This document shows positions 234 to 30,204 of a stretch of DNA of 32,704 nucleotides, piece after piece; position 1 is the stretch's first letter, and the number at the start of each line of letters is the position of its first letter. The stretch comes from Deltaproteobacteria bacterium. Its GTDB lineage: Bacteria; Desulfobacterota; SM23-61. The stretch lies in the NCBI GenBank assembly GCA_026388915.1, contig JAPLIW010000750.1, positions 1 to 32,704 on the forward strand, written 5' to 3'. The notes below the pieces were generated by a model. That model had not been told where the DNA came from. It did not search any database and saw nothing but the letters and a program-made list of their open reading frames with translations. A program made the position numbers and the translations under genes.

Positions 234-240
234 AGGTATT

Positions 241-273
241 GGACACGGATGAACACGGATCAACACGGATAAT
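241..273 (+). repeat. Decamer-array arm, forward orientation (GGACACGGAT GAACACGGAT CAACACGGAT AAT)
   Basis: Three head-to-tail 10-bp units ACACGGATNA. Inverted partners lie at 397-419 and 458-488. Confidence 0.85.
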
Positions 274-396: not shown

Positions 397-419
397 AATC
401 CGTGTTCATCCGCGTCCCA
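397..419 (-). repeat. Decamer-array arm, reverse orientation, two units (AATCCGTGTTCATCCGCGTCCCA)
   Basis: Its reverse complement, TGGGACGCGGATGAACACGGATT, matches the first two units of the 241-273 arm with one mismatch. Confidence 0.8.
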
Positions 420-457
420 TTAGGGCTTTGGACTTCACGTTTTTTGCGAATAAAAAA

Positions 458-488
458 CCTGTGTTTATCTGTGTTCATCTGTGTCCCA
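458..488 (-). repeat. Decamer-array arm, reverse orientation, three units (CCTGTGTTTATCTGTGTTCATCTGTGTCCCA)
   Basis: CAG-type variant of the same unit. It ends 5 nt before the ATG at 493 of the ArgH-like gene. The ORF-track start at 481 lies inside the repeat. Confidence 0.85.
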
Positions 489-492
489 ATCT

Positions 493-14892: not shown

Positions 14893-14904
14893 AAACAATT
14901 GAAC

Positions 14905-14931
14905 CGCAGAGCACGCAGAGGGCGCAGAGGA
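14905..14931 (+). repeat. Nonamer-array arm, forward (CGCAGAGCA CGCAGAGGG CGCAGAGGA)
   Basis: Three head-to-tail 9-bp units CGCAGAGNN, starting 13 nt after the atpG stop. Confidence 0.8.
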
Positions 14932-15003
14932 TTTAAACAGTCAAAAGTCAATCATCAAGGGCATAGAGCCTTGCGCCATTCTTAGGGGAAGCAGACGAAT
15001 TAA

Positions 15004-16491
<1,488 letters not shown>

Positions 16492-19763: not shown

Positions 19764-19830
19764 GCGGGGGCCCCCGATGGGTCGCGGGGCGGGGAAAGCC
19801 CATAACCCCAGAAAAGCTCCAAAATTTTGC

Positions 19831-20162: not shown

Positions 20163-21413
20163 ATGAATATTGTTGAGCTGAAAGAAAAAAAGATCAATGA
20201 GCTGAACAAATTGGCCAGGCAGCTCAACGTCGAAGGGTCCAGCGGGATGCGCAAGCAGGATCTCATCTTTGCCATCTTGCAGGCCCAGACCGAGAAGAAC
20301 GGCCTGATCTACGGCGAAGGGGTTCTGGAGACCCTGCCCGACGGGTTCGGCTTTCTCCGTTCCCCCGACTTCAACTACCTTCCCGGCCCCGACGACATCT
20401 ACGTCTCGCCCTCCCAGATCCGCCGATTCAACCTGCGCACCGGAGACACCATCGCCGGACAGATCCGGCCCCCCAAAGAAGGGGAGCGCTACTTCGCCCT
20501 CCTGAAGGTTGAGGCGGTCAACTTCGAGGAGCCCGACCTGGCCAGAGAGAAGATCCTCTTCGACAACCTCACCCCCCTCTACCCCAATTCCCGCCTCAGC
20601 CTGGAAGTTCCGGGAGAGGACAACAAATCCATGCGGGTCATGGACCTGCTGACTCCCATCGGGAAAGGCCAGCGCGGATTGATCGTCAGCCCTCCGCGGG
20701 CCGGCAAGACCATGATCCTCCAGTCCATCGCCAACAGCGTGGCCCAGAACCACAAAGATACGGTCCTGATTGTTCTGCTGATTGACGAGCGGCCGGAAGA
20801 GGTCACGGACATGCAGCGTTCCGTCCATGGAGAGGTGATCAGTTCCACCTTCGACGAGCCCGCCCAGCGCCACGTCCAGGTGGCCGAGATGGTGTTGGAG
20901 AAAGCCAAACGGCTGATCGAGCATCAGAAAGACGTGATTATTCTCCTGGACAGCATCACCCGTCTGGCGCGGGCCTACAATACGGTCATCCCTCCCAGCG
21001 GAAAGATCCTTTCGGGCGGGGTGGATTCCAACGCCCTGCACAAGCCCAAACGGTTCTTCGGCGCCGCCCGGAACGTGGAGGAGGGAGGGAGCCTGACCAT
21101 CATTGCCACCGCCCTGGTTGATACCGGCAGCCGGATGGACGAGGTAATCTTCGAGGAGTTCAAAGGCACGGGCAACATGGAGATTGTCCTGGACCGCAAG
21201 CTGGCGGACCGGCGGATCTTCCCGGCCATCGATATCAATAAGTCGGGAACCCGGAAGGAAGACCTTCTTCTGAGCTCCTTGGAGCTCAACCGGGTGTGGA
21301 TTTTACGGAAGCTTCTCCAGCCGTTGAATTCCATCGATGCCATGGAGTTCCTGCTGGATAAGATGAAAGGAACGAAAGACAATAAAGAGTTCCTGGATTC
21401 CATGAGCAAGTAG
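20163..21413 (+). CDS. rho: Transcription termination factor Rho
   Basis: 416 aa. N-terminal [26 protein letters not shown]-binding domain GFGFLR, Walker A PPRAGKTM, and full-length resemblance. Confidence 0.97.
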
Positions 21414-21493
21414 AAAAGCAGCGGTCCGCAAGCAGCTAAAGGCAAGGATATCATGGGTTCTATTTTTGCAGATCGCTTTTTAGGGAGGACTCA

Positions 21494-21709
21494 ATGAAGA
21501 AGGATATTCATCCCAAGTTTGTAGCGTCGATCATCAAATGCGCCTGTGGGAACGAGATCCGGACGCAGTCGAATCGGAAGGAAATCTCGGTGGAAATATG
21601 CTCCAAGTGCCATCCCTTTTTCACCGGGAAGCAGAAACTGATCGACTCGGCCGGACGGGTGGAGCGCTTCCAGAAGAAATACGGCCTGAAGAGCCAGAAG
21701 TCTGCCTAG
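21494..21709 (+). CDS. rpmE: 50S ribosomal protein L31 (Zn-binding type)
   Basis: 71 aa. MKKDIHPKF, CxC...CxxC cysteines (CACGNE...[10 protein letters not shown]) and [10 protein letters not shown]. Confidence 0.95.
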
Positions 21710-22837: not shown

Positions 22838-22847
22838 AGAATGAATT

Positions 22848-22879
22848 GGACACAGATGAACACAGATAAACACAGATAA
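22848..22879 (+). repeat. Decamer-array arm, forward (GGACACAGAT GAACACAGAT AAACACAGAT AA)
   Basis: Three 10-bp units starting 11 nt after the DUF1385 stop. Confidence 0.9.
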
Positions 22880-22925
22880 AAGAAAGCGACGGAAACCACA
22901 ATTATTTTCCTTTTTTTCCCATGCC

Positions 22926-22958
22926 TTATCTGTGTTCATCTGTGTTTATCTGTGTCCC
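22926..22958 (-). repeat. Decamer-array arm, reverse (TTATCTGTGTTCATCTGTGTTTATCTGTGTCCC)
   Basis: Inverted partner of 22848-22879 with a 46-nt spacer. It is identical to the 33-mer at 25078-25110 and ends 15 nt before the prfA ATG. Confidence 0.9.
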
Positions 22959-22973
22959 ATTAATTTTGAATTT

Positions 22974-24038
22974 ATGTTCCAGAAATTAGACCAGGTTGAA
23001 AAACGATTCCAGGAGATCGAACAGCTCCTGGCGGATCCCAAGACCCTGGGCAATCCCAAGGAGATGCAGAAGCTTGCCCGGGAGAGGGCAGAAATCTCCA
23101 AGTGGGTGGAGACCTACCAGGCTTACAAGAAGGTAAAGGAGGAGATCCAGCAGAGCCAGGAGTTGCTCCAGGAATCCGATGAGGAGCTGCGGGACTTGGC
23201 CAAGGCCGAGCTTCAGACGCTGAAGGAGCGCTTGGCCAGCCTCGAAGAAGAGCTCAAGATCCTCCTTCTGCCCAGGGACCCGCGGGACGAGAAGAACATC
23301 TTTCTGGAGATCCGCGCGGGAACGGGCGGAGAAGAGGCGGCTCTCTTTGCCGCCACCCTTTTCCGGATGTATGCCAAGTATGCGGAAAAGAAACGATGGC
23401 GGGTGGAGGTGATGAGTGAAAACCCCACGGGCCTCGGAGGGTTCAAAGAGATCATTGCCCTGGTGGAAGGCAAACGCGTGTTCAGCGTCCTGAAGCACGA
23501 GAGCGGCGTGCACCGTGTTCAGCGGGTCCCCGTGACCGAGGCCTCGGGCCGGATCCACACCTCCGCCGTGACCGTGGCCGTGCTTCCGGAGGCCGATGAA
23601 GTGGAAGTGGAGATCAACCCCAACGATTTGCGCATCGACGTCTACCGGTCCTCGGGCCCCGGAGGACAGAGCGTGAACACGACGGATTCGGCGGTGCGCG
23701 TGACCCACATCCCTACCGGAATGGTGGTGACCTGCCAGGATGAAAAGTCCCAGCATAAAAACAAGGCCAAAGCGCTGAAGGTCCTCCGCGCGCGCCTGCT
23801 GGACAAGTTGACGGAAGAGCAGCAGACCGAAATATCGGAACAACGAAAGAGTCAGGTGGGGTCCGGAGACCGGAGCGAACGCGTGCGGACCTATAATTTC
23901 CCCCAGAATCGGATCACCGATCATCGCATCAATCTCACCCTATACCGCCTGGACGGCGTTCTGGATGGGGACCTGGATGAAATGACCCATGCCCTGACTG
24001 CTCATTTCCAGGCCGAGGCGCTCAAATCCGGGCAGTGA
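22974..24038 (+). CDS. prfA: Peptide chain release factor 1
   Basis: The ATG at 22974 gives [22 protein letters not shown]. PxT-type domain, and the GGQ motif [11 protein letters not shown]. The track start at 22932 would translate the repeat arm ([10 protein letters not shown]). Confidence 0.96.
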
Positions 24039-24048
24039 GGGGGATCCT

Positions 24049-24966
24049 TTGGGCCAGACCGAATGGACCATCCTGGCGCTCATCCGCTGGGCCGATGAGC
24101 GCTTTAAAAAAGAAGGTATGGCCACTCCCCGCCTCGATGCCGAAGTCCTTCTGGCCGAAACGCTGGCCACCGACCGGGTCGCCCTTTACACCCACTTCGA
24201 CCAGCCCCTGCAACCGGATGAATTGGCCCGGTTCAAAGAGCTCATCCGGAGGCGCCTCCGCCGAGAGCCGGTGGCTTACATCCTCGGGAAGAGAGAGTTC
24301 TGGTCCCTCCCCCTCCGCGTCACCCCGGATGTCTTGATCCCCCGTCCGGAAACGGAAACCCTGGTGGCCGAAGCGCTGAAAATACTGACTCCCGCAGAAG
24401 GAAAGGATTTCCACATTCTGGAAATCGGAACCGGCAGCGGCGCGATCAGTATCGCCCTGGCCAGGGAATTACCCGCAACCAAGGTGGTGGCCACCGACCT
24501 GTCCCCCAAAGCCCTTGCCGTGGCCGAGGAAAACGCCCTGCGGAGCGGAGTCCGGGAACGGATTCGGTTCTTGCAGGGGGACCTGTTTCATCCGCTGGAA
24601 AAGGGAGAGACCTTCAACCTGATCGTGACCAACCCGCCTTACATCCCGCGGGGACAGTTTCCTTCGCTCCTGCCGGAAGTTCGAGATTATGAACCCAAAG
24701 TCGCCCTTGACGGAGGGAAGGATGGACTGGATTTCTTCCGGCGGGTTTTGCCCGCAGTGGATGAATATTTGCTCCCGGGGGGTTGGTTCCTGGCCGAAAT
24801 GGGCGCCGGGCAGGATCCGCAGATTTTAAAGATCGCCGAAAAAAACCCGGACCTGGACTCTTTCACTTTCGCCAAAGACCTGGGCGGCATCAACCGCGTC
24901 TTCAAAGCCCGAAAGAGAGTAAAAGATTTTCATGGGACACAGATGAACACAGATGAACACAGATAA
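24049..24966 (+). CDS. prmC: Release-factor glutamine N5-methyltransferase PrmC (HemK)
   Basis: SAM motif ILEIGTGSGAISIALA and catalytic TNPPYIP. TTG start. The last ~11 codons (GTQMNTDEHR) are read from the decamer repeat arm. Confidence 0.9.
   Translation: MGQTEWTILALIRWADERFKKEGMATPRLDAEVLLAETLATDRVALYTHFDQPLQPDELARFKELIRRRLRREPVAYILGKREFWSLPLRVTPDVLIPRPETETLVAEALKILTPAEGKDFHILEIGTGSGAISIALARELPATKVVATDLSPKALAVAEENALRSGVRERIRFLQGDLFHPLEKGETFNLIVTNPPYIPRGQFPSLLPEVRDYEPKVALDGGKDGLDFFRRVLPAVDEYLLPGGWFLAEMGAGQDPQILKIAEKNPDLDSFTFAKDLGGINRVFKARKRVKDFHGTQMNTDEHR
24935..24966 (+). repeat. Decamer-array arm, forward (GGACACAGAT GAACACAGAT GAACACAGAT AA)
   Basis: Three 10-bp units overlapping the 3' end and stop codon of prmC. 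Confidence 0.9.
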
Positions 24967-25077
24967 TAAATATTGTAGGGGGGCTCACGCCCTTGTCGTG
25001 ATGCCTTCCTAAAATTGGGCTGAATCTTTATGCCATTCTGTGGTAAATTCTTTCCAAAGAAAGGTCGATTTGATGAT

Positions 25078-25110
25078 TTATCTGTGTTCATCTGTGTTTA
25101 TCTGTGTCCC
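25078..25110 (-). repeat. Decamer-array arm, reverse (TTATCTGTGTTCATCTGTGTTTATCTGTGTCCC)
   Basis: Inverted partner of 24935-24966 with a 111-nt spacer. It ends 23 nt before the murA ATG. Confidence 0.9.
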
Positions 25111-25133
25111 AATCGTTTATAGGAAGTCGCCCC

Positions 25134-29573: not shown

Positions 29574-29615
29574 TTGTATGGCATAACCATACAATTGTAT
29601 GGTATAAACATACAA
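29574..29615. promoter_or_regulatory. Two tandem 21-bp palindromic operator-like sites (TTGTATGG-cataa-CCATACAA and TTGTATG-gtataaa-CATACAA)
   Basis: Read directly from the sequence. The two units are adjacent (29574-29594, 29595-29615) and end 1 nt before the ATG at 29617 of the wHTH-nucleotidyltransferase gene. Confidence 0.6.
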
Positions 29616-29616
29616 T

Positions 29617-30204
29617 ATGAACCTCCTGGCTGAGATCCTGTCTTCAAAGATCAGGTCCGAAATCTTCCGATTGCTTTTTGGAGTAAATGAGGAAGCGCTC
29701 CATATGCGGGAGATTGAAAGGCGCTCGGGCTTATCCATTGGAACGATTCAGCAAGAAGTCAAGAAATTACTTCGATTGACCTTGATAATAGAGCGCAAAG
29801 ACGGGAACCGGATTTATTACAAGGCCAACAAGGAACACCCTCTATATGCTGAAATCCGCAGCCTGGTTCTAAAGACAGTGGGCCTTGTTGATTTTTTTCA
29901 GAAAGCTCTGAAGCCCAACCCCAACATCAAGTTAGGTTTCATTTTCGGCTCCATCGCCCTCCATGAGGAAAAAGCTAAGAGCGATGTGGATCTGATGATT
30001 ATTGGTGACATTGGTATGAGGCAACTCACCGGGCTACTTTCGGGGGTATCCGGCCAAATTGGCCGAGAGATTAACCCCCATATCTTAAGCATTAAAGAAT
30101 TCTTGAAGCGAAAGAACGGCAAAGATCATTTTCTAATACAGGTTCTTGAATCACCCAAGTTATTCATAGTCGGAAACGAAAATGAGCTTACAGAGCTGGC
30201 TTGA
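29617..30204 (+). CDS. Winged-HTH fused to a minimal nucleotidyltransferase (MNT-type antitoxin-like)
   Basis: 195 aa. N-terminal ArsR-like wHTH (SKIRSEIFRLLF...MREIERRSGLSIGTIQQEVKKLL...DGNRIYYKAN). C-terminal Pol-beta-type NTase motif FGSIALHEEKAKSDVDLMIIGD. Confidence 0.8.
   Translation: MNLLAEILSSKIRSEIFRLLFGVNEEALHMREIERRSGLSIGTIQQEVKKLLRLTLIIERKDGNRIYYKANKEHPLYAEIRSLVLKTVGLVDFFQKALKPNPNIKLGFIFGSIALHEEKAKSDVDLMIIGDIGMRQLTGLLSGVSGQIGREINPHILSIKEFLKRKNGKDHFLIQVLESPKLFIVGNENELTELA

Follow-up and report, generated by a model that had tools for sequence, protein, structure and literature searches.

Intergenic hairpins upstream of prfA, murA and an ArgH-like gene share their repeat family with the ends of GxxExxY cassettes and look like apparently undescribed selfish elements

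The stretch of DNA analyzed here, referred to as the window, comprises 32,704 nt of contig JAPLIW010000750.1 from a Deltaproteobacteria bacterium (GCA_026388915.1) and carries several long hairpins whose arms are tandem arrays of short units, in three of the elements of the 10-bp sequence ACACRGATNA. The genes flanking these hairpins encode a Lyase_1 (ArgH-like) protein, DUF1385, PrfA, PrmC, MurA, AtpG and AtpD. All seven arms that had been reported in an original prediction, made from the letters of the sequence alone, were found where it had placed them, among them the reverse arms at 22926-22958 and 25078-25110 with their identical 33-mers. A fourth hairpin of the same build, located between atpG and atpD and absent from that prediction, uses a 9-bp unit (CGCAGAGNN, three times; 14902-14931 / 15019-15047). 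The hairpins and the terminal inverted repeats of small cassettes that contain a gene of the GxxExxY family form one repeat family; unlike the cassettes, the hairpins are without the open reading frame (ORF), and it is rather probable that they represent ORF-less copies in a family of DNA elements that are small, palindromic and probably selfish. The individual features in the window are the following.

238-273, forward strand: forward arm of the G-type, ATTGG followed by three copies of ACACGGAT with the linkers GA and CA.
397-420, reverse strand: reverse arm of the G-type with two units (ATCCGTGTTCATCCGCGTCCCAT), inner partner of 238-260.
421-457, reverse strand: conserved linker, joining two reverse arms in tandem and rich in AAAGAC when read on the opposite strand.
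458-490, reverse strand: reverse arm of the A-type, ending GTGTCCCAAT shortly before the ATG (493) of the ArgH-like gene; the RNA fold pairs this arm with 241-273 via G.U.
14902-14931, forward strand: forward arm of the 9-bp sister subfamily (AACCGCAGAG CACGCAGAG GGCGCAGAG), right after the atpG stop codon.
14932-15018, strand not applicable: AT-rich loop of the atpG-atpD hairpin.
15019-15047, reverse strand: reverse arm of the 9-bp subfamily, adjoining the atpD start.
22840-22879, forward strand: forward arm of the A-type (GGACACAGAT GAACACAGAT AAACACAGAT AA) with an outer palindromic extension, starting 3 nt past the DUF1385 stop codon.
22880-22925, strand not applicable: AT-rich loop of 46 nt with weak homology to the loops of relatives at the same site.
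22926-22965, reverse strand: reverse arm of the A-type, its GTGTCCC end 15 nt from the prfA ATG (22974).
24933-24966, forward strand: forward arm of the A-type in which prmC has its final 11 codons and its stop codon; the 30-mer GGACACAGATGAACACAGATGAACACAGAT of this arm is identical to the left arm of a GxxExxY cassette (locus L124).
24967-25077, strand not applicable: loop of 111 nt, the core of which (AAAATTGGGCTGAATCT...TGTGGTAA) is kept at the same site in relatives.
25078-25111, reverse strand: reverse arm of the A-type, its GTGTCCC end 23 nt from the murA ATG (25134); relatives have one to three tandem reverse arms here.

Three consecutive ACACRGATNA units match six times in the window against 0.00 matches expected from 100 shuffles, which excludes a chance origin of the seven arms; two units match 13 times against 0.01 expected from shuffles, and at every arm Tandem Repeats Finder detects a period of 10 bp. 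The arrays are not a CRISPR, as the units of an arm follow one another without spacers and the arms stand in inverted, not direct, orientation; this agrees with the original prediction. According to the repeat finder, the pair upstream of prfA (22840-22879 / 22926-22965) forms a stem of 40 nt with 90% complementarity around the 46-nt loop and the pair upstream of murA (24933-24966 / 25078-25111) a stem of 34 nt with 97% complementarity around the 111-nt loop. The composite element upstream of the ArgH-like gene (238-490) combines the pairs 241-266 / 461-486 (194 nt apart) and 238-260 / 398-420 (137 nt apart), and within it 398-490, two arms joined by the 41-nt linker, constitutes a conserved doublet that shares 85.6-88.2% identity with copies in other Deltaproteobacteria genomes. 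The loops in the window measure 46-194 nt and contain no ORF. Predicted RNA folds reach -53.7 kcal/mol (z -10.2) for the hairpin upstream of prfA, -92.9 kcal/mol (z -9.9) for that upstream of murA and -92.2 kcal/mol (z -4.5) for the composite element.

Such very stable stems favor the main rival explanation, according to which the host keeps the hairpins as intercistronic RNA structures selected for RNase III processing, 5'/3' end protection or translation tuning of prfA, murA, argH and atpD. The same is true of their positions, as every element in the window lies in a run of co-directional genes 5-23 nt from a start codon; the predicted distances from the GTGTCCC end to the ATG hold exactly, with 5 nt for the ArgH-like gene, 15 nt for prfA and 23 nt for murA. 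This explanation is nevertheless unlikely in the light of the family-wide evidence given below, and it finds no help in Rfam, which at gathering thresholds matches nothing in the window, rRNA included. Terminator-like sites were not found at the elements and their regional count does not exceed that of shuffles; a short GC-rich stem with a T-run, as in an intrinsic terminator, is absent from the elements. A promoter scan likewise gave no signal at the elements. A sigma-54-like motif in the murA loop was dropped upon inspection, as its spacing is not conserved among orthologues.

The arms also leave their mark on annotation. The prmC frame enters the left arm of the murA hairpin and stops there (...FKARKRVKDFHGTQMNTDEHR; ...HGTQMNTDEHR), whereas most relatives end in ...FKARKK*. 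As suspected earlier, gene callers translate the arms, and arm-derived peptides contaminate gene calls as PrmC tails (...NTDEHR) and as N-termini of GxxExxY proteins (MNTD...). For the PrfA of the window and for a 438-aa ORF no exact sequence is on record. At the composite element, a heptamer array of 4.3 copies of AATGCGG (203-232) runs from the upstream ORF's stop codon up to the forward arm (238), with no inverted partner seen in the window. The ArgH-like (Lyase_1) gene downstream is split over two overlapping frames (481-936 and 638-1840) with a run of eight G near 660-668, and the Pfam match of the second Lyase_1 ORF begins only at profile position 99; the split reflects a frameshift, an assembly error or a pseudogene.

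What ties these hairpins to a gene? In one arm-bearing locus (L103) a 387-nt loop contains an entire ORF, which has the motif G-F-L-E-K-V-Y and belongs to the family PF13366 (PDDEXK_3) / TIGR04256 (GxxExxY protein). A tblastn search with this ORF gave five matches in the loci that had been selected for their arms; each is within 100 nt of an arm, and inverted arms enclose two of them. For an unbiased test, 80 metagenome loci were fetched through protein similarity alone. When upstream and downstream sequence were compared, about 60 of 72 loci had as their best inverted repeat a tandem array of 9-10-mers similar in kind to the arms. With a fixed pattern, arrays within 150 nt on both sides, forward on the upstream and reverse on the downstream side, were found for 42 of 65 GxxExxY genes, and 11 more had an array on one side only; the background of arrays elsewhere in the same protein-selected loci is 0.097 per kb. 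The array-bracketed elements are 410-600 bp long. Moreover, one cassette (L124) has the exact 30-mer of the window on both sides of its GxxExxY gene and another (L200) has arms of the window type (ttGGACACAGATaaACACGGATgaACACAGAT ... ATCTGTGTcccaat), and therefore the window hairpins are ORF-less relatives of these cassettes. The 9-bp arms of the window in turn match repeats around GxxExxY genes in three loci (L148, L150, L174).

A full-length cassette consists of an arm with three units of 9-10 bp (GG head, NCRCNGAT + RA), about 15 nt, the GxxExxY gene of about 120 aa, about 12 nt and the inverted arm; cassette heads read GGAA. Many cassettes have the ATG of the ORF within the final GATGAAC of their left arm. 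Accordingly, an MNTD, MNAD or MDTD start, which is the arm sequence ATGAACACNGAT, is seen in about 90% of the 120 homologues closest to a Brocadia protein, and the arm contains an in-frame ATG in 28 of 42 diverse cassettes. Among the 150 best-scoring representatives of 50%-identity clusters, 22 have an MNTD-type start, so that the in-arm start is clade-dependent. Convergent array pairs 200-1500 nt apart (n=55) nearly always enclose a GxxExxY gene, and among the 55 enclosed ORFs no transposase-like ORF and no RAYT gene was found. Hence, an associated enzyme is absent inside the window but not from the family, as elsewhere a PD-(D/E)XK nuclease gene is bracketed by arms of the same type.

Two observations concern the setting of GxxExxY genes. 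In the protein-selected loci (L120-L199), crude gene calls place the GxxExxY gene in the same orientation as the next downstream gene in 43 cases against 12, with a weaker upstream bias of 28 against 17; if this bias is real, the cassette may rely on host transcription or contribute to it. A Fusobacteria plasmid has its GxxExxY gene between two direct copies of a segment of about 45 nt (L210, 1120-1180 and 1580-1640), each with ATCCGTGTACCTAT at its end; these are two degenerate arms, both in reverse orientation, and do not form an inverted pair.

The GxxExxY protein carries the invariant residues E34, D73, E83 and K85, which represent a PD-(D/E)XK signature (E...D...ExK), and an AlphaFold2 model gives an alpha-alpha-beta-beta-beta-alpha-beta-beta core. 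The family is large, with 19,759 clusters at 50% identity. A superfamily survey lists PDDEXK_3 as of unknown function and as transferred multiple times between divisions (PMC3424549). A sequence search of the PDB with the GxxExxY protein found no relative. PADLOC gave no match and PHROGs a single marginal match of unknown function (E 0.0019); there is thus no sign of a known defense or phage family. Members of 250-277 aa with two full domains exist (P0241-P0245 and about 15 other representatives) and could be read-through tandem cassettes or true two-domain proteins.

How widely are the arms distributed? In a scan of one genome per species the 30-mer GGACACRGATNAACACRGATNAACACRGAT occurs in at least 111 genome stretches from about nine phyla, as judged by record titles. 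The carriers include many Deltaproteobacteria, two single metagenome-assembled genomes (MAGs) of which have 16 and 17 stretches among the matches listed, Alpha-, Beta- (among them CP019169, a complete genome) and Gammaproteobacteria, many Chloroflexota (among them the chromosome CP070811 and contigs of more than 1 Mb), and furthermore Planctomycetota, Verrucomicrobiota, Nitrospirae, Acidobacteriota, Latescibacteria and one cyanobacterium. Arms are also found on finished plasmids of Thiodictyon syntrophicum Cad16T and Gemmatirosa kalamazoonensis; a phage collection gave no arm match. It could be argued that the arms are artefacts of assembly or binning, as most carrier records are MAGs. Their occurrence in finished replicons, chromosomes as well as plasmids of cultured strains, means that they are not assembly artefacts, and eight independent assemblies have them at the same loci, so that this explanation has a negligible probability.

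The consensus of 302 arms reads aaTgGG / ACACRGAT gA / ACACRGAT rA / ACACRGAT ww with a conserved T-G-G-G head, and 205 of the 302 have exactly three units. Neighboring arms are convergent in 73 cases, divergent in 7 and tandem in 49, the tandem arms favoring a conserved AAAGAC-rich linker of 41 nt. The loops range from 6 to 387 nt, show no relation between loci and are frequently palindromic in themselves. Palindromy extending outward from the arms is lineage-specific, as for example GAGTGAYGCNACCCAAAGNC in Betaproteobacteria. In Deltaproteobacteria short tandem-repeat modules (CTCACNN, CCTTACG, TGCCTAAAR, CTCCGAA) are stacked next to arms, and solo, tandem and degenerate arms are common. In Desulfococcaceae bacterium HSG8 (L043, 140-580) hairpins follow each other head to tail with arms alternating in orientation and a repeated 20-nt joint, cctataccgcgggaatcagg, between them.

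This family-wide view bears on the host-selected RNA hairpin. The same arm sequence sits at hundreds of unrelated loci in about nine phyla, which speaks against it, as do the solo, tandem and degenerate arms. The co-directional setting holds within the window; elsewhere the intergenic contexts of hairpins are co-directional in 44, convergent in 15 and divergent in 10 cases. Likewise, the position just before a start codon applies to the window and is no property of the family, as the distances to the next start codon (from crude gene calls) are widely spread. G.U and A.C mismatches are symmetric to the transcribed strand, with 56 against 54 in the co-directional (++) context, and in arm pairs of mixed type A.C on the sense strand is more frequent. 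There is thus no sign of selection on the sense-strand RNA. Among the four roles that the original prediction had listed without choosing between them, a selfish element similar to repetitive extragenic palindromes (REP) or bacterial interspersed mosaic elements (BIME) fits best, given the multiple copies, their mosaic structure, their presence in every intergenic context and their spread over about nine phyla.

Symmetric mismatches fit a function at the DNA level. Together with a period of 10 bp and a unit number fixed at three, they speak for arrays in which a nucleoid-associated protein or a global regulator of the host would bind three phased 10-bp sites, the inversion serving to loop or insulate DNA. 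Against such host-protein arrays speaks the 9-bp sister subfamily, which breaks the helical phasing; moreover, the spread across phyla and the variants tied to one small mobile gene would fit a partner encoded by the element better. We know of no host factor for an ACACRGATNA-type site, which also counts against this explanation and makes it, on balance, hardly probable. Binding of a protein to the 10-bp units is still plausible, as had been proposed, with the nuclease of the element itself as the likeliest partner instead of a host regulator. The arms bear a partial likeness to the DnaA box, the CsrA site and the E. coli REP.

How do the elements behave over evolutionary time? Relatives were graded via their PrmC homologues, which range from 72% to 99% identity, and their contigs keep the gene order rho, rpmE, DUF1385, prfA, prmC, murA, hisD. 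Hairpins at orthologous sites are kept in relatives whose PrmC is 72-96% identical. The hairpin between DUF1385 and prfA is kept in all seven relatives with a contig covering the site. Its loops drift, and both arms switch together among ACACAGAT, ACACGGAT and ACGCAGAT; double-sided changes occur in 4 of 17 pairs of the stem, and the only unpaired cases are two single cells of the comparison. At the prmC-murA site the loop core is conserved and the number of tandem reverse arms is 1, 2 or 3. The atpG-atpD hairpin has an ortholog in one relative (L212, 200-400), in which CGCAGAG is replaced by CACAGAG on both arms. The same relative contains a 309-nt element of the 9-bp subfamily between rpmE and DUF1385 (L212, 7469-7777) that is absent from L113, L114 and the window, with an overlap of 4 nt at the junction, and thus represents a presence/absence polymorphism. 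The elements are long-lived, homogenized in concert and sometimes gained or lost. Pairing of the arms is conserved through compensatory changes; this counts for the host-selected RNA hairpin, and so does the presence of hairpins at three unchanged sites even in relatives whose PrmC is only 72% identical.

As to the question of how the elements spread, the following course is inferred. The arms would be recognition arrays for the nuclease of the cassette, acting in trans, and three helically phased sites per arm would be suited to a nuclease multimer. The nuclease may cut at or near the arms or at an extruded cruciform, and copies could then spread and be homogenized via break repair or gene conversion instead of DDE-type transposition. 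Break repair or gene conversion would explain the spread, the missing target-site duplication, the concerted arm switches, the variable number of arms and the occurrence across phyla. Empty hairpins would be deletion derivatives or landing sites. Inside operons the element would be co-transcribed and the RNA duplex of about 30 bp would be an RNase III substrate, any effect on the expression of prfA, murA, argH or atpD being a by-product.

Several points weigh against the hairpins being selfish elements related to, and served by, the GxxExxY cassettes: 1) tblastn finds no GxxExxY gene in the window, nor in its relatives over about 20 kb, so that action in trans has to be assumed; 2) 12 of the 65 GxxExxY genes have no arrays, and at some loci the hairpin lies beside the GxxExxY gene and not around it; 3) the loops of ORF-less copies have no sequence in common with the cassette interior; 4) the prfA, murA and atpD hairpins are old and stably inherited, which is also compatible with a host function; 5) there is no excess of direct repeats at offsets of 0-15 nt in 130 elements, as a target-site duplication would produce, and no defined element end was found; 6) a recent jump was not seen, as one exact GxxExxY protein occurs in 10 places that all have one genomic context; 7) the structure model of the protein is of moderate quality (pLDDT only 65) and its Foldseek matches are weak, all with E > 0.005 and to generic PD-(D/E)XK proteins (Cas4, Hjc, splicing endonuclease, lambda-exonuclease-like). 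To our knowledge, no activity has been established for any GxxExxY protein, which has to be added to this side of the balance.

The closest described architecture is that of the 23S rRNA intervening sequence (IVS) excised by RNase III. In Coxiella burnetii, the IVS with S23p measures 428-444 nt and has a terminal inverted-repeat stem of 28 bp and one loop ORF of about 125 aa; it is viewed as selfish, horizontally acquired and then vertically stable, and its stem is cut by RNase III (PMC4990558). The terminal inverted-repeat stem and the one small ORF in the loop are shared with the cassettes. In contrast to the IVS, which resides in helix 25 or 45 of the rRNA, the window elements lie between protein-coding genes; the ORF of the cassette encodes a PD-(D/E)XK nuclease instead of a four-helix bundle; the arms consist of three tandem units and the window copies have no ORF. 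Because the Coxiella stem is excised by RNase III, the transcribed stems described here are, by analogy, probably RNase III substrates as well. A second gene family with this architecture was observed in L200, where an ORF of 127 aa similar to 23S_rRNA_IVP / bAvd (PF05635, PF22296; 380-880) lies outside rRNA, 2 kb from the GxxExxY cassette, with inverted arrays on its two sides, each made of two copies of TTGGCAGT (period 13 nt). This PF05635 gene between inverted tandem arrays suggests a wider class of small-ORF hairpin cassettes.

Could the hairpins be ordinary REP/REPIN elements or MITEs (miniature transposable elements with inverted repeats) moved by a known type of transposase, either RAYT/Y1 or the DDE enzyme of an insertion sequence with the same inverted ends? 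Like REP, BIME and REPIN, they are extragenic multicopy inverted hairpin pairs that form a mosaic of arms and conserved linkers and persist vertically for long times, and as for REP and RAYT a single small enzyme gene is flanked by the repeats. Like the MITEs Correia, ERIC and RU-1, they are short and non-autonomous, have terminal inverted repeats and far more copies than the ORF-bearing form, insert near gene ends and are co-transcribed. The betaproteobacterial copies, a family of about 190 bp with partly conserved loops and outer inverted repeats of 25 nt, also speak for such elements. The details are different. Positions -4 to -1 of the arm read T/G/G/G, and the heads T-G-G-G or GGAA are not the GTAG or CGTC tag described for the REP superfamilies (PMC3733652). 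Each arm is a tandem array and not itself a palindrome, let alone a GC-rich one, and the gene is GxxExxY instead of a Y1 transposase. REPs are lineage-specific, whereas here one arm sequence occurs across phyla. Unlike in MITEs, a target-site duplication is missing, the loops are unrelated among copies, and the same-ended ORF-bearing partner is about 450 bp long with a PD-(D/E)XK nuclease and no known transposase as its sole ORF. In view of these differences, and of the 55 enclosed ORFs among which nothing transposase-like was seen, this explanation is quite improbable.

Another comparison is offered by the 'multicopy nucleotide sequences' of Geobacter, which comprise palindromic families together with direct repeats of 6-42 nt, make up about 12% of intergenic regions in a deltaproteobacterium and have no known function (PMC2996986). 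Several short tandem-repeat modules are stacked in a similar way in the relatives of the window. The arm sequences are not in the supplementary files of that paper, which draws no link to a gene (PMC2996986). On the whole, ORF-bearing rRNA intervening sequences, REP/BIME/REPIN and the Geobacter multicopy sequences are the nearest descriptions, and by kind the arm family is to be rated among small palindromic selfish elements. The heptamer repeats known as STRR in cyanobacteria are a near comparison for intergenic repeats. A literature search found no description of the arm sequences or of the association between gene and repeat, and the mentions of GxxExxY, PF13366 or TIGR04256 it returned were incidental. 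The arm family thus looks like one of apparently undescribed selfish elements rather than gene-specific regulators.

Beyond the relationship of the hairpins to the cassettes, it is possible, if distinctly speculative, that the GxxExxY cassettes are autonomous mobile elements of a new class, the smallest known with their roughly 450 bp. The 120-aa nuclease, their only product, would recognize the three-unit arrays of the ends and drive copying into new sites or empty hairpins without target-site duplication, with the hairpins of the window as non-autonomous offspring. If the nuclease mobilizes the cassette, this would be a new kind of minimal mobile element with a host range across phyla; some 20,000 protein clusters annotated as unknown would gain a function, and the spurious arm-derived peptides in protein databases would be accounted for. 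Independent of this possibility, an unexplained and very widespread intergenic repeat is now tied to a specific large gene family, and the arms offer a testable substrate for its protein. Located in essential operons (the atp genes, prfA-prmC-murA), the elements change the ends of genes and put 30-bp duplexes beside ribosome-binding sites, and they may matter for operon expression in many uncultured lineages.

Some further repeats were observed in the same region. The spacer between rho and rpmE contains in relatives hairpin stems of CAGC-containing heptamers (GTTCAGC, CGTCAGC and others; L113 1390-1470, L118 1160-1250, L212 7040-7130), of which the window has a short version only (21413-21538). 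A one-armed array of three copies of AGCACCCAAA lies just 5' of TTGACA in the highly conserved rho leader of about 400 nt in L212 (5410-5450) and is absent from the window at 19800-19830. Finally, two internally palindromic copies of a 21-bp unit, TTGTATGGCATAAACATACAA, are located in the window at 29574-29616 directly 5' of the ORF 29617-30204 and resemble an operator.

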